49,107 nucleotides of DNA from a virus (lineage: Duplodnaviria > Heunggongvirae > Uroviricota > Caudoviricetes), in the IMG/VR virus record IMGVR_UViG_2563366861_000002. One strand, written 5' to 3'. The notes under the pieces are model-generated. The model did no database searches. It saw only the letters and a program-made list of their open reading frames with translations, and was not told the origin of the DNA. Each line of letters starts with the position of its first letter. Within the stretch, counting starts at the first letter, position 1. The position numbers were made by a program, and so were the translations under genes. Shown one piece after another: positions 1,428 through 47,773 of this stretch.

Positions 1428-3842
1428 CTAGTAACGGGCGTCATCAAGTGCATTATGGCGCTCACCTTCGAATGGAATAGCCGTTCTGGCATCGAAGTCT
1501 ATGGCTTTCCCCAGCTCAACGATTGTGCGTACATCGCGATCGTTGTAGTAACGCCACGGGCAGGGGATCCCCTGCCGTTCGTATGAACGGCGCAAAATCG
1601 TGTTGTCGAAGTTGGCTCCATTTCCCCAAACCTGAACAAAAAATTCACCGGAGTTTTCGTCGATAAATTCCCGCAATTGTAACAGTGCATCATCTAACGG
1701 GATTTCATCGGTCATAATGGCAGATTGCGCTTCGCGTGATTGCTTAAGCCACCATTTAATGGTGTCCCGATCAATGACTCCGCCAGCAGTTTCCAGATCG
1801 ATAGTCTTACTAAATTCCGGTCCCATATCTCCGGTTTGCGGATCGAAAAATATTGCACCTATTGAGATGATCGGGGCATCAGGATTTTTTCCCATGGTTT
1901 CAAGGTCTATCATTAGATGGTCACACGTCCTGCTGGTGGATGTGATTACGTGATGACTGTTCACCTTAATTGAGTGATTTGCCGTCTCGCCAGTTTCATT
2001 ATCGCTATCGTGATGCTGATTGCCGCCAGTGTTCTCCTTGTGTGGATGTTCAGCGCCTTCCATTTCCTCCGGATCATCTTCCTGAACTTCAACCTGATAC
2101 TCTTCATCGAATGTTTCCTGGTATGTTGCGTCGCCCATCACCGCGCCACAATCAGGGCAATTGCCGCCGCCGGTCTGACCGCAGGCGGTGCAGACTTTTT
2201 CCACTTCCTGTTGCGCCACTGGTTCAGGCTGTTTCGTTTCTGGCTCGTTTTGTAACGCATTTGGGCTGTTTTGTTCCGCTTTTTGGTAGTTCCGTTCCGA
2301 TTCATGCTGGTTCTGGTTTACAGAATCGCGGGTCTGGATCCCCTTAACCCATTTCGGATCATTCGGGTCGCTAATCCCTGCAACAAATTCTCCGCGAGAG
2401 GCAGCAAGCAACTTATCGGCGTCAGGCTGGCTGATATTGGCTGCCTGCATAATTTTGTTTACTTCGTCAGCGGTAACTTTTACCGGCCCTGGTTGTGCGG
2501 TCGTGTCAGATGCACCAGTATTTTGTTGTGAACCTGAGTATGTACCGTTTTTGTGGGCGAAATATTCTTCTTTCGTGATTTCAGTAGCCCCGGCAGCCAG
2601 TGCCTTATCCAGACCAGAAAGTTTGTTTGCGCGACCGTATTTTTCGCCATCCTTGTCGGTGAAGAGGAAGTAGAACGGCCCCTCACGCTCTACAGATGGT
2701 TCGACTTCCACTTTGCATTCGGTTTTTTCGTTGTCCGGAATTGCCGTTTCCACTGCATCAGTTTCTGGTACTGGCGACGAGAGAGTATCAGTTGCGCTCT
2801 GATTTCTTCCTTCATCTTCAAACACGCCCTTTGTAGTCAGGTATTCAGTAATGTATTTGTTCAGTGCCACAGGGTCTTTGTGAATGTCGATCGGACGTTC
2901 ACGGACAAGGCCAAAAATAGTCTGGCGGTCGTAGCGAAGGGCATCAGGCTGTTTGCGCATTGATGCCGAGATACGCTTCCAGTCTTCGCGGTCGTTGTCG
3001 ATAACTTCATTTTTTGCCCAGCGATGGATGCTGCCGTCAATGTTTCCGGCATCCACATCACCAGGCCAGAGAGCGTAGGCCAGTTCGTCATCCAGTGTTT
3101 TCCATGTCTGCTTGTATTCGCGATGAATGGCAGCAATGACCAGGCTGATTTTTCCTGTTGAATTTTCAGTGTGCTGTTGATTGACTCTGGCGCGGGCGAG
3201 ATCAACAACAGACGTGTATTTTCCGGTTTCCTTGCGTTCACCTTCGCGACGTTTTTTCCAGATGCGCATCTCTGCCTGAATTTCGGGCCATTTGGCACCA
3301 GGCTTACATTTATGCTTAACCCACCCGATGGCATGCAGCTTAAGCTCCGGATACATGGCGTTAACATCTGGCATTTTCATCAACGCTTCAACGATATGTC
3401 CGTCGAATGTTGCCATGTCTTCCTGCAACAATTCCTGTGCGCTAATAACCATATCAACGGTGATGTTTTCACATGTGTCGAACTTAACCATGACAGCGTT
3501 CTGTACTTCAGGGGCCAGCTTGTCAAAAGTGACGTTCATCGGATCGGATTCAGTCTCAACCGGGACAAAGGAAGCAGACTCCTCATCCCAGCGGTTTTCC
3601 TGCATATATTCAGCATCCCAGGAATCGAGGGCAGGGCGGGGTATACCGGGTTTATCCTCGCAGACAAGAAATTTATAAGCGCAGTCCTGAGCAGCCGGAT
3701 AATGTTCCAGGAATTGCCAGTGAAATTTTGCGCGGGCGCGACGTTCATCACCGGCTTCAATGGCAGTGGCTACAGCGACGGCACCTTCTTCCTTTATTGC
3801 CTGTTCGTCCGGAATGGCGGCGCAAATAAAGACTTTACTCAT
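1428..3842 (-). CDS. large exonuclease-domain protein (DEDDh 3'-5' exonuclease fold at C-terminus, Cys4 zinc-ribbon in middle)
   Basis: 804-aa ORF; C-terminal motifs MIDLETMG (Exo I), GNGANFD (Exo II), HNALDDARY (Exo III) match DnaQ/RNase T-like DEDDh; CTACG...CPDCG zinc ribbon; acidic/Q-rich linker. Confidence 0.8.
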   Translation of the reverse strand: MSKVFICAAIPDEQAIKEEGAVAVATAIEAGDERRARAKFHWQFLEHYPAAQDCAYKFLVCEDKPGIPRPALDSWDAEYMQENRWDEESASFVPVETESDPMNVTFDKLAPEVQNAVMVKFDTCENITVDMVISAQELLQEDMATFDGHIVEALMKMPDVNAMYPELKLHAIGWVKHKCKPGAKWPEIQAEMRIWKKRREGERKETGKYTSVVDLARARVNQQHTENSTGKISLVIAAIHREYKQTWKTLDDELAYALWPGDVDAGNIDGSIHRWAKNEVIDNDREDWKRISASMRKQPDALRYDRQTIFGLVRERPIDIHKDPVALNKYITEYLTTKGVFEDEGRNQSATDTLSSPVPETDAVETAIPDNEKTECKVEVEPSVEREGPFYFLFTDKDGEKYGRANKLSGLDKALAAGATEITKEEYFAHKNGTYSGSQQNTGASDTTAQPGPVKVTADEVNKIMQAANISQPDADKLLAASRGEFVAGISDPNDPKWVKGIQTRDSVNQNQHESERNYQKAEQNSPNALQNEPETKQPEPVAQQEVEKVCTACGQTGGGNCPDCGAVMGDATYQETFDEEYQVEVQEDDPEEMEGAEHPHKENTGGNQHHDSDNETGETANHSIKVNSHHVITSTSRTCDHLMIDLETMGKNPDAPIISIGAIFFDPQTGDMGPEFSKTIDLETAGGVIDRDTIKWWLKQSREAQSAIMTDEIPLDDALLQLREFIDENSGEFFVQVWGNGANFDNTILRRSYERQGIPCPWRYYNDRDVRTIVELGKAIDFDARTAIPFEGERHNALDDARY

Positions 3843-3934: not shown

Positions 3935-4135
3935 TTAAAGACCTGCCGGGATTTCGTTATTATCCTGGTGAATAACTTTATCGACCGGGTAACAGTTACC
4001 GGGAATTTTCTGTTCGGTTGCTGCAGTCACACACTCCTGCATTGTCCTGTGAACACTGACTGCAATATCAACTGGCTCTCCGGAAACAAGAAAAACTGTC
4101 AGAACAAGTGCAAATGCTGTATTCATTGCCAGCAT
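3935..4135 (-). CDS. hypothetical small secreted protein (signal-peptide-like N-terminus)
   Basis: Internal start MLAMNTAFALVLTVFLVSG... of the 81-aa ORF; hydrophobic N-terminus; AT-rich region; no homology recognised. Confidence 0.3.
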   Translation of the reverse strand: MLAMNTAFALVLTVFLVSGEPVDIAVSVHRTMQECVTAATEQKIPGNCYPVDKVIHQDNNEIPAGL

Positions 4136-4416
4136 CCTTTTTGTATCGGACGTAAACGGGCCAGCATTGAAAGAATGCATATTTTATTTAATAGCTCCCG
4201 TTCGTGTTTTCTCTTGTTAATGGCATCTTCAGTAAATACAGGGTTACTGATATTGACACCAATTTCAAAACAACCTTCAGACGTATTAACGTTTGGTAAT
4301 AACGTTTCCATTATCGCGTCCTCAACAATGAATTTTGTGATGCGGTGCCTGGTGCCTCCAGGTGACGTTAACCAGTTAACAATTAACGCCGGATACAGAG
4401 AATCCACCCATAACAC
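4123..4416 (-). CDS. hypothetical protein
   Basis: 97-aa ORF in AT-rich early-left region; better RBS (GAGGA) precedes internal start METLLP (4311); function unknown. Confidence 0.3.
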   Translation of the reverse strand: MLWVDSLYPALIVNWLTSPGGTRHRITKFIVEDAIMETLLPNVNTSEGCFEIGVNISNPVFTEDAINKRKHERELLNKICILSMLARLRPIQKGCWQ

Positions 4417-4873
4417 TGTTTTTGGTTTTAACTGTTCCGCGTGCGCTCAGCCGCATTCACCACATCACAAAATTCACTTTAAAAAGGGCGGCAGAGCAGT
4501 CACGGAGTAAAACTGATACCGCCAAACGTCACCAGAAAATTGATAACAGAGGGCGTTGCAGCGGGGTTGTCACTTAAGCGTATGGTCAACCTGACAACCC
4601 GGTGTCCTCAACGGGGGAAGGAATAACCCCGCCATACTTACCGCCGCGCCATTTCGCGGATTGCCACAACCGGAAGCGCACGGTCGACGAAAATTTAACG
4701 ACAGGCTATCTATGAACCAGCTACCTCGCCGTGCGCTTTCGCGTTATGGTCTGACTTTTCAGGGAAATATCCTTTCAGTAAACTGTCAGTGCCGGATGCT
4801 CACCCGTGTCCGGCGCACGCACTCCACCTCACCCGTGGAGAACTCCTTAATCACCAACCCTCAGGAGGGTGAA

Positions 4874-5149
4874 ATGTCGACTGAAAATGATGAAATCATT
4901 AACTCCCTGATACGCCAGATTAATAATTTTGATAAAGCATTGCAACATGCTGCGGCGCGTAGTGATATAACTCTTTTAGCAATTTCATTTCTTGCATCTG
5001 TTATGGATAAAAATGAAGTCGTACGACAGAGTCTTGTTGATTATATCGACTCGCTTCAACCCGGCACTTTCAATCATGAGAGCTTCAATCATGAGAAAGA
5101 GCATGTTAAGTCTGTAATTAATTCTCTTATTTTGAATCAAAAGAATTAA
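4874..5149 (+). CDS. hypothetical protein (AT-rich moron-like gene, opposite to early-left operon)
   Basis: ATG at 4874 preceded by GGAGGG RBS; 91 aa; visibly AT-rich; 3' end overlaps convergent gene 5127-5459 by 23 bp. Confidence 0.5.
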   Translation: MSTENDEIINSLIRQINNFDKALQHAAARSDITLLAISFLASVMDKNEVVRQSLVDYIDSLQPGTFNHESFNHEKEHVKSVINSLILNQKN

Positions 5150-5459
5150 TGCTTTTTGTTGCAAAGTAATTTTCAAGGGGTTCTATTCGAATCCCTTTCT
5201 TTTTCATTAACAAGCCAAACCCCTTATCAATGATGTCCATTAGATCCAGGAAGTATTTTTCATGTAAATCCTGGTTATCAGAGAGCTGCTTCTCTTCGTA
5301 CAGCCCGATAAAGGCTCGGCGTACGTTACCGGATATATTGTCGATGGTTTCTTTTTCTACGGTACTCAGGTCAAGAGTCGCCAGTTGAGAGCGAACCACA
5401 TTCGATGCCATTTCCTGGAATGGGACTGGTAAATCTTTAAATTCCATCGTCAACCTCAT
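5127..5459 (-). CDS. hypothetical protein (early-left operon)
   Basis: 110-aa ORF; start overlaps stop of upstream gene in ATGA arrangement (translational coupling). Confidence 0.5.
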   Translation of the reverse strand: MRLTMEFKDLPVPFQEMASNVVRSQLATLDLSTVEKETIDNISGNVRRAFIGLYEEKQLSDNQDLHEKYFLDLMDIIDKGFGLLMKKKGIRIEPLENYFATKSINSFDSK

Positions 5460-5692
5460 CAGTCAGTGTTTCTGGTTAACCAGCGACGTGCGCCAGCTTC
5501 AGTTTTAAACGTTTTGCTTCTGGTATATGTCATCGCGGTAAACGTGCCGTCCTGGTTGGGAAACACGCCGCATACCAGAGATTCGTTGTTGCCAAGCTCG
5601 ATAGTATCCATGCTGACCTCATTTCCCCTTAACGCCGGGGTAGCGGAACAAAAACCTGCTGCATAGTTATTAAAGTTGAACCCTGCCGTCAT
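5459..5692 (-). CDS. hypothetical protein, first gene downstream of leftward early promoter
   Basis: 77-aa ORF immediately downstream (leftward) of candidate PL/OL; not similar to lambda N. Confidence 0.55.
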   Translation of the reverse strand: MTAGFNFNNYAAGFCSATPALRGNEVSMDTIELGNNESLVCGVFPNQDGTFTAMTYTRSKTFKTEAGARRWLTRNTD

Positions 5693-5789: not shown

Positions 5790-5836
5790 AAAACTATAGG
5801 AAATGCCTAATTACTTGTCAATAGGCTATGCCTAAT
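5790..5836 (-). promoter_or_regulatory. candidate leftward early promoter PL with operator OL
   Basis: Minus strand: -35 TTGACA (plus 5816-5821), 17-bp spacer, -10 TATAGT (plus 5793-5798); overlapped by palindrome TAGGCTATGCCTA (5822-5834) and half-sites GCCTAA. Confidence 0.5.
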
Positions 5837-5929: not shown

Positions 5930-6406
5930 TTAAGTTCCTGTCTTGGTGATGTTCTGGCTTTTCCGTTTTGATTCTTGATTTTTCAGATAGTTAGCTACCT
6001 TCATTTCCATTGCGGCAATGTAGGCGCGAACGTCATGATCAACCCAACTAGGCTCCGTAGCATTTCCAGATAAGATGAAAGCCACAATTGCTCTTTTTTC
6101 ATCAGAGGCGGCTTGATAAAGGCTGTTTATGTCTAAAAGTTCACTTTTTGTATCTGAAGTGGATGGGGTTGGTATGGGGTATTCGTTAAGCCCCCAATGC
6201 TCTGGACCAACCACATCAGAAAAGAAACGCCATAGTTCTGGAAGTTTGTCTTTACTTATCGAACCTTTCTTAATCCAGTCATGGATTGATGGTGGTTGGA
6301 CTTTGAAATGACGTGCGATTTCCGCCTTTGATTTGACGGCTCCTGATGCAATTTTTTTGTTAATGGCCTGCTCTATCGCTCGGCCTAAGTCTTTACCACT
6401 AAGCAT
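5930..6406 (-). CDS. CI-type prophage repressor (RacR-like HTH protein)
   Basis: 158-aa ORF with N-terminal HTH (SKAEIARHFKVQPPSIHDWIKKG); divergent from Cro-like gene; flanked by operator palindromes; resembles my memory of E. coli RacR. Confidence 0.8.
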   Translation of the reverse strand: MLSGKDLGRAIEQAINKKIASGAVKSKAEIARHFKVQPPSIHDWIKKGSISKDKLPELWRFFSDVVGPEHWGLNEYPIPTPSTSDTKSELLDINSLYQAASDEKRAIVAFILSGNATEPSWVDHDVRAYIAAMEMKVANYLKNQESKRKSQNITKTGT

Positions 6407-10144: not shown

Positions 10145-10355
10145 AAACGGTTTGCGGGAAAAGGAGAGTTAAGTAGAATTGCAGCGGGTGCTTGAGGCTA
10201 TCTGTCTCAGGCATGAACACCAAAAGGCAGATAGAGAAAAGCCCCAGTTAACATTACGCGTCCGGCAAGACGCTTAACATTAATCTGAGGCCATATCTAT
10301 GCTCTACACACGTAGGTTAGCCTCTTACGTGCCGAAAGGCAAGGAGAAGCAGGCT

Positions 10356-10511
10356 ATGAAGCAGCAAAAGGCGATGCTAATCGCCCTGATCGTCATCTGT
10401 TTAACCGTCATTGTGACGGCACTGGTAACGAGGAAAGACCTCTGCGAGGTACGAATCCGAACCGGCCAGACGGAGGTCGCTGTCTTCACAGCTTACGAAC
10501 CTGAGGAGTAA
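10356..10511 (+). CDS. Hok/Gef-family type I toxin (small membrane toxin)
   Basis: MKQQKAMLIALIVICLTVIVTALVTRKDLCEVRIRTGQTEVAVFTAYEPEE matches Hok/Gef family signature (TM helix + LTRKxLCE...EVAxFxAYE); in-frame upstream ATG at 10299. Confidence 0.8.
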   Translation: MKQQKAMLIALIVICLTVIVTALVTRKDLCEVRIRTGQTEVAVFTAYEPEE

Positions 10512-16231: not shown

Positions 16232-16307
16232 GGCCCTTTAGCTCAGTGGTGAGAGCGAGCGACTCATAATCGCCAGGTCGCTGGTTCAAATCCAGCAAGG
16301 GCCACCA
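16232..16307 (+). tRNA. tRNA-Ile (anticodon CAT, ileX-like)
   Basis: 76-nt cloverleaf GGCCCTT...AAGGGCC-A-CCA; anticodon loop CTCATAA; near-identical to E. coli tRNA-Ile2 as I recall it. Confidence 0.85.
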
Positions 16308-16316
16308 TATCACATA

Positions 16317-16393
16317 CCACCATTAGCTCATCGGGATAGAGCGCCAGCCTTCGAAGCTGGTTGCGCGGGGTTCGAGTTCTCGATGGCGGTCCA
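16317..16393 (+). tRNA. tRNA-Arg (anticodon TCG), imperfect stems
   Basis: D-arm GCTC-ATCGGGATA-GAGC, anticodon stem CCAGC/GCTGG with loop CTTCGAA, T-loop TTCGAGT, 3' CCA; one acceptor mismatch and wobble-rich T-stem. Confidence 0.55.
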
Positions 16394-16644: not shown

Positions 16645-16848
16645 TGATGATTGTCTGGCTGCCGGAGAATTTGTTAAAAATTACATCGCATGGTGAATCC
16701 CCCTCAGCGGCGGGGCATCTGGCAAAGTGTATGATCCAGAGAACATGCAAATTCAGTAGACAGGCTGAATTTACCGGGAGGCCCCTGGCACCATGCGACA
16801 GACAGAAATTAGGCTATACTTCAGCCCCTCTCCGGAGGGGCTTTTCTG
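16645..16848 (+). ncRNA. candidate structured small RNA / small transcription unit, copy A
   Basis: Promoter-like TTGTCT-17-TAAAAA, conserved GCATGGTG...CACCATGC segments, GC hairpin, and terminator AGCCCCTC-TCCG-GAGGGGCT + TTTTCTG; paralog at 17115-17308. Confidence 0.35.
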
Positions 16849-17114
16849 TGCAGGATGTGTCACAGTTTCCTGAATTCTGAGTACTGTCCTGTTACTCAGG
16901 GTGCTATATTTTCTGACGTGATGAAAGTCTGCCGGAAGGCGGAACGTATCGGAAATGACCCAGTAGAGAAAACGTTGACTCAGATACCGATGCTGAGTTA
17001 CCGGGAAACCGGCATCACATGACCGCTATCCTTCCAGGCTCGCTCCGGCGGGCCTTTTTACTGCAGAAAACAGTTTTCCCGTAAAATGCCACGTTGCTCA
17101 TAATTCAGGCTGGC

Positions 17115-17308
17115 GATTATTGTCTGGCCGGCGGGAAGTTTGTTAAAAAATTTCGCATGGTGAATCCCCCTGTGCGGAGGGGTAATCAGCGAGTAGGTAT
17201 ATGGGATAATCGCGGATTCAGGTGCTGGTACTGAATTCACCGGGAGGCACCCGGCACCATGCAATGGCACATAGCGCCACTCTCCAGCCCCTCTCCGGAG
17301 GGGCTGTT
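17115..17308 (+). ncRNA. candidate structured small RNA / small transcription unit, copy B
   Basis: Same architecture as copy A; internal hairpin differs by compensatory changes (CCCCTCAGCGGCGGGG vs CCCCCTGTGCGGAGGGG). Confidence 0.35.
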
Positions 17309-17340
17309 TATATTGATTTTGTCAGATGTGAGTAAACTCC

Positions 17341-47189: not shown

Positions 47190-47773
47190 TGGCATTCAGA
47201 ATGAGTGAACAAGCACGGACCATAAAAATTTATAATCTGCTGGCCGGAACTAATGAATTTATTGGTGAAGGTGACGCATATATTCCGCCTCATACAGGTC
47301 TGCCAGCAAACAGTACCGATATTGCACCACCAGATATTCCTGCTGGCTTTGTGGCTGTTTTCAACAGTGATGAGGCATCGTGGCATCTCGTTGAAGACCA
47401 TCGGGGTAAAACGGTTTATGACGTAGCGTCAGGGGACGAGTTATTTATTTCTGAACTCGGTCCGTTACCGGAAAATGTTACCTGGTTATCGCCGGAAGGG
47501 GAGTTTCAGAAGTGGAACGGCACAGCCTGGGTGAAGGATACGGAAGCAGAAAAAATGTTCCGGATCCGGGAGGCGGAAGAAACAAAAAACAACCTGATGC
47601 AGGTAGCCAGTGAGCATATTGCGCCGCTTCAGGATGCTGCAGATCTGGAAATTGCAACGGAGGAAGAAACCTCATTGCTGGAAGCCTGGAAAAAGTATCG
47701 GGTGTTGCTGAACCGTGTTGATACATCAACTGCACCTGATATTGAGTGGCCTACGAACCCTGTCAGGGAGTAA
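47189..47773 (+). CDS. tfa: tail fiber assembly protein Tfa
   Basis: 194 aa; [17 protein letters not shown]... matches lambda Tfa; start overlaps stf stop. Confidence 0.85.

Follow-up and report, generated by a model that had tools for sequence, protein, structure and literature searches.

Morons, in the concept of Hendrix and colleagues, are independently transcribed accessory genes lying between conserved phage genes, and the classic moron carries its own promoter and terminator. Closest in layout to the locus described here is sieB of Rac, lambda and P22, a rightward gene inside a leftward early operon that lies tail to tail with the preceding early gene. Rac carries, in order, kilR (minus strand), the small RNA (sRNA) kilS (minus), sieB (plus), ydaF/DUF1391 (minus), ydaG (minus) and racR (minus), with the tails of sieB and ydaF overlapping by 4 nt; in lambda, sieB (plus) ends exactly at the end of N (minus), its orientation being read from a list of open reading frames (ORFs), with the gene unlisted in the GenBank table. 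In P22, the antisense RNA sas switches sieB translation (PMC12197685), and accessory loci that are expressed in lysogeny have been described (PMC7067206). Here we analyzed ORF91, a 91-amino-acid (aa) orphan gene in the virus record IMGVR_UViG_2563366861_000002 (Caudoviricetes), a stretch of 49,107 nucleotides referred to below as the window, and found that locus comparisons are best explained if ORF91 was horizontally acquired and sits in a polymorphic slot where the second gene of a dicBF-type early-left operon ends.

The window is a lambdoid, Rac/Qin-like Escherichia coli prophage adjoining ompW. Along its minus strand, a gene for a RacR-like repressor is followed by a promoter, a DUF1391 gene, a 106-aa gene, the site of ORF91 (itself on the plus strand), a spacer, DicF, dicB, a DUF1482 gene and an exonuclease gene, such that the series dicB, DicF, ORF91 (plus), 106-aa gene, DUF1391 gene and racR resembles the order in Rac; by analogy of layout, the slot holding ORF91 corresponds in position to sieB of Rac and lambda. 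The Qin dicBF operon (ydfA-ydfB-ydfC-dicF-dicB-ydfD) shares with the window a DUF1391 first gene, an untranslated region (UTR) of 340 nt with a hairpin, DicF, DicB and DUF1482/YdfD, whereas the window carries the 106-aa gene and the opposed ORF91 in place of ydfB and ydfC, and a RacR-type repressor where Qin has DicA. Of the elements that mark a dicBF-type operon, DicF, DicB, the DUF1391 first gene and a repressor-side promoter are all present, and the ydfB/ydfC pair between ydfA and the UTR is missing. The two opposed genes comprise the following features:

4838-5130, no strand assigned: segment of 293 nt missing from cassette-free loci (24 IMG/VR and 2 E. albertii loci)
4863-4869, plus strand: Shine-Dalgarno sequence AGGAGGG of ORF91, 4-5 nt before its ATG
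4874-5149, plus strand: ORF91, 91-aa orphan gene, with ATG at 4874 and stop TAA at 5147-5149
5069-5098, plus strand: 15-nt tandem duplication within ORF91 (FNHES/FNHEK codons), seen in the sequence
5127-5149, shared by both strands: 23-bp 3' overlap, each stop codon lying within the other gene's sequence
5127-5447, minus strand: 106-aa early-left gene of the 'MEFKDLP' family (phrog_6937), from ORF, RefSeq and PHROG match
5130-5288, minus strand: variable AT-rich C-terminal region of that gene, type A, codons 54-106, from sequence comparison and GC content
5289-5447, minus strand: conserved N-terminal domain of that gene, codons 1-53, 47-49% GC and backbone-like

For locus comparison, we retrieved 80 related IMG/VR loci. 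The loci that lack the 293-nt segment, including the two from E. albertii that were the sole yield of a genome-contig scan, carry the same minus-strand gene as a 124-aa form, and GC content drops to 35% at the inserted segment and ORF91 vs. ~50% in the flanks. The comparison further shows that, in related phages, the slot holds at least six unrelated small ORFs with products predicted to be soluble, or nothing:

ORF91: two alleles
ORF73 (73 aa): L051/L052 and 30 further loci, unrelated to ORF91
ORF77 (77 aa): PPompW phages and phage Evi, unrelated to ORF91
ORF92 (92 aa, phrog_18692): intact in 49 loci, frameshifted in 8
ORF100 (100 aa): L087
ORF66 (66 aa): cultured phage mEp460
No ORF (empty slot): the 24 IMG/VR and 2 E. 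albertii loci

In phages such as Tritos, ydfC directly adjoins the spacer in place of a slot ORF. No similarity among the slot ORFs was detectable by BLASTP or hhalign, and a likeness suggested by eye among ORF91, ORF92 and ORF73 (a central Ala/Leu-rich helix) was rejected, as neither program supported it. Four of the five sister ORFs each match a PHROG family of their own, with function unknown. All slot ORFs are soluble and most are acidic, and most share the ribosome-binding site context CAGGAGGGTGAA(A)TG despite being unrelated. Among the sisters, ORF73 shows a ratio of nonsynonymous to synonymous substitution rates (dN/dS) of 0.19, with 3, 1 and 11 polymorphic sites at codon positions 1, 2 and 3, respectively, while a 1-nt frameshift splits ORF92 in 8 of the 57 loci of type C (named for the C-terminus of the minus-strand gene), where the adjoining 133-aa gene is intact (L085/L086 3058-3141 and 2862-3056; L138-L142). 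The mosaicism of the slot is otherwise ordinary, as such small genes are typical of lambdoid early regions.

Several lines of evidence argue that ORF91 behaves as a genuine protein gene under purifying selection. The initial annotation had placed a 91-aa plus-strand gene at 4874-5149, which is correct, with its ribosome-binding site now read as AGGAGGG at 4863-4869. At the local GC content of 35%, where ~7% of random codons are stops, 91 open codons would arise with a probability of ~0.001 by an arithmetic estimate; together with conservation at a dN/dS of 0.28, this makes a chance frame unlikely. The dN/dS value comes from the comparison with a second allele and is the lowest among the six reading frames: the two alleles share 79% amino-acid identity and differ at 44 nt with zero indels, such that the frame is kept, and the stop is retained (TAA to TAG). 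ORF91 is intact in all of the ~55 IMG/VR loci that carry it, and its 15-nt repeat occurs in one, two or three copies among relatives, in frame every time. The product is soluble and acidic (pI 5.4).

The start site of ORF91 differs between gene callers, with RefSeq giving a 145-aa version from the ATG at 4712. We rejected this long form (145/162 aa) in favor of the 91-aa form, because the extension consists of conserved GC-rich UTR that is also found in relatives without a plus-strand ORF, and because it is out of frame with the plus-strand ORF of the PPompW phages; other cassette ORFs cannot be extended in this way. As a separate observation, the plus strand of the DicF region and spacer is nearly stop-free (window 4540-4873; L179 2861-3388; L180 2877-3305), with open frames of 112-175 codons in registers that differ by relative, probably since this strand is T-poor. 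The scarcity of stops likely explains why gene callers extend plus-strand ORFs over the spacer or invent ORFs there.

ORF91 occurs in 197 of 5426 complete E. coli genomes. Plasmid records of 217-238 kb account for four of its 200 copies (hits H33 and H37), indicating that the cassette or prophage occasionally resides on large plasmids. Homology and structure searches, suggested as a check by the initial annotation, returned neither a family nor a fold match for ORF91. In a word-indexed search of 5.8e9 proteins, its relatives were all E. coli copies at ≥76% identity with none more distant; an exhaustive phmmer search of 1.8e9 representatives returned only ORF91 fragments and one weak, probably spurious match; and Pfam (E≤0.1), PHROGs, PADLOC and NCBIfam gave no match. 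The AlphaFold2 model contains four predicted helices at a predicted local distance difference test score (pLDDT) of 64.7.

The minus-strand gene most likely starts at the ATG at 5447 to encode a 106-aa protein beginning MEFKDLP. A 110-aa gene had originally been called here, and while the gene itself stands, its start at 5459 is less likely than 5447, because all homologues start at the latter, relatives have lost the upstream ATG at 5459, and the RefSeq gene likewise spans 5127-5447. The description of both genes as AT-rich likewise holds in part, applying to ORF91 and to the C-terminal half of the minus-strand gene (32-36% GC) but not to its N-terminal half (47-49% GC). Across relatives, the MEFKDLP gene carries at least five unrelated types of C-terminus, giving proteins of 106 to 135 aa, with dN/dS of 0.18-0.27 and purifying selection in both halves; in the two loci without a plus-strand ORF for which it was measured, dN/dS is 0.23-0.27. 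The initial annotation had made its reading depend on conservation of the two ORFs in homologues, and both are in fact conserved, with dN/dS pointing to purifying selection on each.

The AlphaFold2 model of the 106-aa protein is helical (pLDDT 74.4), with an N-terminal helical hairpin at pLDDT 84-89. No function-giving family match was obtained from Pfam, NCBIfam, PADLOC or PHROGs, nor any match at E<1 from Foldseek against PDB, and a PDB sequence profile search was also empty. A further 62 phage records, mostly of Shiga toxin (Stx)-converting phages, contain distant homologues (38-50% identity), and PA2 gp25, the one Stx-phage homologue examined, has no convergent ORF. Searching with only the N-terminal 53 aa gave mainly fragments. 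In the type C 133-aa protein (P0101), we also observed that residues 69-117 match PHROG 30817, 12693, 32391 and 2982 from the second profile position, such that C-domains of this kind appear to exist as stand-alone small proteins or on other N-termini. The best reading of these comparisons and models is that the MEFKDLP gene would be an independent early gene whose product combines a conserved helical hairpin at the N-terminus with an exchangeable C-terminus.

The convergent 23-bp overlap described initially is confirmed, with the minus-strand ORF ending at 5127 and the common stretch running from 5127 to 5149. Homology to loci without ORF91 resumes at 5131, so resident sequence of the minus-strand gene supplies the final six codons of ORF91 together with its stop. 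In the other direction, inserted DNA has replaced the last 18 codons of the 124-aa form, and the stop of the 106-aa form (5127-5129) is itself inserted DNA. As judged from these junctions, the overlap is a by-product of insertion of the cassette flush against the end of the minus-strand gene. The 3' overlaps in sister cassettes span 11, 23, 32, 32, 41 and 77 nt, compared with 23 in the window.

The expression of ORF91 has to be considered against the operon in which it lies, whose genes, RNAs and transcription signals are as follows:

4123-4311, minus strand: dicB, cell-division inhibitor (PF05358, 4e-36)
4486-4537, minus strand: DicF sRNA (Rfam RF00039, 76.7 bits, E 2.8e-15)
4538-4873, minus strand: long conserved spacer of the dicBF operon, untranslated and preceding DicF, 336 nt (PMC5069750)
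4564-4600, no strand assigned: 9-bp hairpin, GGGTTGTCA (4564-4572) and TGACAACCC (4592-4600) with a 19-nt loop
4756-4784, plus strand: best candidate promoter TTTTCA-17-TAAACT, weak and not significant
4789-4841, plus strand: two adjacent hairpins, strong on plus-strand RNA only
5175-5197, plus strand: terminator-like hairpin followed by TCTTTTTC, -11.6 kcal/mol, z -4.3
5459-5611, minus strand: DUF1391 (YdfA/YdaF-like) gene, first in the operon (PF07151, 9e-28)
5793-5821, minus strand: early-left (dicBp/pL-like) promoter TTGACA-17-TATAGT, near-consensus, with the top score of 14.9
5930-6406, minus strand: RacR-like repressor gene (ORF list, RefSeq)

Three elements on the plus strand bear on independent rightward transcription of ORF91, which is plausible but unproven. 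The first is the candidate promoter at 4756-4784, which at a score of 10.0 ranks second on the plus strand of the 2.3-kb region (shuffle median 7.25, 95th percentile 10.9), and whose two hexamers are conserved in all relatives, those without a plus-strand ORF included. The second is the pair of hairpins at 4789-4841, with a stability of -28.1 kcal/mol on the plus-strand RNA (z -4.4, with 0 of 200 shuffles as stable) vs. z -0.6 on the minus-strand RNA. These hairpins begin where a transcript from the candidate promoter would begin, and the stretch is conserved in all dicBF spacers, that of K-12 Qin included; they may point to a conserved rightward, anti-operon RNA. The third is the terminator-like hairpin, which lies 26 nt past the ORF91 stop within resident minus-strand gene sequence. 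We rejected a plus-strand terminator after the ORF as a general cassette feature, since it is found in types A/A' only.

Based on these findings, we tentatively favor, while stopping short of calling it probable, a reading in which ORF91 is a prophage accessory gene of the 'moron' type that is silenced by convergent early-left transcription on induction. The repressed prophage would support low-level rightward transcription of ORF91, with TTTTCA-17-TAAACT at 4756-4784 as a possible promoter, in which case the transcript would carry a 5' UTR beginning with stable hairpins. Induction would shut ORF91 off through convergent transcription driven by the strong leftward promoter at 5821-5793, and the RNA made from this promoter would be fully antisense to ORF91. 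The small, acidic, helical product might target either an incoming phage or a host protein, as in exclusion or lysogenic conversion. ORF91 resembles morons in its atypical composition, in its presence, absence and replacement between near-identical phages, and in its insertion exactly at a gene boundary in an orientation against the surrounding operon. It is not clearly moron-like in its transcription signals: any promoter would fall in the resident conserved spacer, and the terminator-like hairpin lies in resident coding sequence.

A number of results weigh against this moron-type reading. No convincing plus-strand promoter was found for ORF91, the best candidate scoring within the shuffled range, and the inserted DNA begins ~35 nt before the ORF91 ATG, so the cassette comes without a promoter of its own. 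The terminator-like hairpin is limited to type A/A' cassettes, with none after the plus-strand ORFs of types B, C and D. A tblastn search of 50,697 deposited phage genomes gave no match to ORF91, which is thus known from prophages only. Searches of Pfam, PADLOC, NCBIfam, PHROGs and protein collections revealed no similarity to SieB or to defense or anti-defense families; Foldseek of the ORF91 model against PDB gave no match at E<1. Finally, ORF91 has no transmembrane segment, its maximum 19-residue Kyte-Doolittle hydropathy being 1.43.

These properties also separate ORF91 from its positional counterpart. SieB proteins are basic, 162-184 aa long and have membrane segments (maximum hydropathy 2.19 in Rac SieB), and PF14163 matches Rac SieB at 1.5e-31 as a positive control but does not match ORF91. 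No in-frame, Esc-like internal start is evident in ORF91. The lack of a PF14163 match, the lack of a membrane segment and the small, acidic, soluble product together rule out ORF91 as a SieB homologue. By analogy, an exclusion or other accessory role is nonetheless plausible for ORF91. Of the functions proposed in the initial annotation, the exclusion or accessory class fits, given the sieB-like position, the foreign base composition, and the presence, absence and replacement among related prophages, while host takeover or anti-defense within the early operon fits poorly, as the gene points against early-left transcription.

An alternative, which we consider unlikely, is that the two opposed genes form a cognate module in which the MEFKDLP C-domain is an early lytic effector that is specifically inhibited or partnered by the convergent small protein (an antidote, immunity, self-immunity or Esc-like protein), so that the two genes would move and diversify as a unit. 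Six of the seven module types do join a MEFKDLP-family gene with a convergent, 3'-overlapping small ORF, and each plus-strand ORF occurs with one C-terminal type only, with ORF92 always beside the type C 133-aa gene and ORF91 always beside a type A gene (106/109 aa); yet such association is physically forced by adjacency and overlap. The 135-aa and 77-aa genes recur near-unchanged (81/82 and 76/77 identical residues) in phage Evi, where the backbone is of the Kil and not the DicB kind and the N-terminus has diverged, and in the window the AT-rich stretch covers both ORF91 and the C-domain. On the other hand, the type A C-domain can accompany ORF91, the unrelated ORF73 or no partner at all (24+2 loci), its gene intact each time and under purifying selection in the two no-ORF loci measured, while 8 of 57 type C loci pair a frameshifted ORF92 with an intact 133-aa gene, and PA2 gp25 lacks a partner altogether. 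An obligate toxin/antidote relation is thus unsupported, as the type A C-domain stays intact with an unrelated partner or none, the type C domain stays intact with a frameshifted one, and adjacency by itself forces the association.

The pair does resemble toxin-antitoxin systems and polymorphic toxin/immunity pairs in its conserved N-terminal region, its exchangeable C-termini and the adjoining small variable gene. It differs from them in that the genes are convergent rather than co-directional, the partner is dispensable, neither protein matches a toxin, antitoxin or defense family, and no hydrophobic type I toxin peptide is present. An extended form of the cognate-module idea seems to us quite improbable: the MEFKDLP gene and its opposed ORF would constitute an unrecognized, fast-diversifying two-component module of lambdoid prophages, in which an early-expressed protein with a constant N-terminal docking hairpin and swappable effector C-domains would be matched by a small acidic protein expressed from the prophage. 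Such a module might be, for example, a new exclusion factor with its self-immunity determinant under convergent transcription, and the cassette-free form would then be derived and disarmed.

A role for the locus in cis as RNA is, in our estimate, also rather doubtful. Here, rightward transcription would interfere or form duplexes with the leftward dicBF RNA and help to silence the toxic DicF and DicB in the lysogen, with the ORFs as secondary passengers. The leftward operon RNA is indeed fully antisense to the plus-strand ORF, the candidate promoter and the plus-specific hairpins are conserved in the spacer across all dicBF operons, also those without a plus-strand ORF, and RNase III processing of the operon is documented (PMC5069750); sieB/sas of P22 provides a precedent for antisense control in such a region (PMC12197685). 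However, the protein sequences of both ORF91 and ORF73 are under purifying selection, the Shine-Dalgarno sequence and ATG are strong and conserved, the plus-strand promoter is only a candidate, and cassette-free operons are common, so the insert is dispensable for operon control. The weakest alternative, that ORF91 is a silent, decaying or accidental frame in AT-rich filler forming the 3' UTR of the minus-strand gene, is very improbable: it would account for the absence of a clear promoter, an orphan without homologues and with a low-confidence structure model, the frameshifts in sister ORF92 (8/57 loci) and the disagreement of gene callers on the start, but not for a 91-codon frame of such low chance probability at 35% GC behind an optimal Shine-Dalgarno sequence, for the low dN/dS and retained stop across 44 substitutions without indels, for intactness in every IMG/VR carrier, or for the five further unrelated ORFs that sister cassettes hold in matching orientation and register.

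The defined slot with its six unrelated occupants is a useful experimental handle. Should the prophage express ORF91 and its sister ORFs, the slot would be a compact and readily recognized hot spot for small accessory genes, lying between the DicF UTR and the MEFKDLP gene. These ORFs would then be a defined candidate set for new exclusion or host-modulating functions, and would add to sieB a second natural case in which convergent early-left transcription turns a gene off. The slot occurs in PPompW prophages, into which Stx2a phages integrate, and may also influence the amounts of DicF and DicB in the lysogen. If the ORFs are silent, the slot would represent routine lambdoid mosaicism.

The 9-bp-stem hairpin that the initial annotation had listed with the gene pair is real, but its tie to the pair does not hold: its position on the minus-strand RNA, 27 nt upstream of where DicF begins, places it in the conserved UTR of the DicF precursor. 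It is identical in K-12 Qin and is kept even where both flanks diverge, and the spacer as a whole is near-identical to that of phages Tritos and PPompW. Its stability is ordinary (z -0.9 on the minus-strand RNA, z -1.4 on the plus-strand RNA), and no T-run follows the stem on either strand. With respect to covariation, L087 alone has a double change, which fits an alternative inner stem GGTTG/CAACC, while the other variants are single and pair-breaking.

Further observations concern the neighborhood of DicF and the operon beyond it. A conserved, promoter-like TTAACA-16-GAGAAT lies on the plus strand between dicB and dicF (window 4376-4403; L089 1006-1033; L181 1477-1504) and, if active, would yield RNA antisense to DicF. 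In K-12 Rac (L177 3406-3503), the kilS sRNA lies upstream of kilR in the same position as DicF relative to dicB, with flanks resembling window 4340-4490, and the Rac and Qin early-left operons have in common a layout of an sRNA plus a division inhibitor. The exonuclease gene at 1428-3842 (minus strand) encodes 804 aa, with a slightly longer RefSeq form in an identical region, and its relatives have YdfE_N/YdfE_C or Exonuc_VIII domains plus an Rv2179c-like domain.

Elsewhere in the prophage, a sok antitoxin RNA (Rfam, 117 bits) at window 10186-10361 (plus strand) adjoins a toxin gene that is annotated as hokD-type in the RefSeq copy of this region, which is identical, the two making up a type I toxin-antitoxin locus. 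Two tRNA genes followed by two tandem copies of the STnc100 sRNA (138 and 132 bits) are located at window 16232-16390, 16658-16851 and 17127-17315 (plus strand). Near the right end, window 47532-47730 (plus strand) gives a full-length match to Rfam IS009 (223.8 bits).

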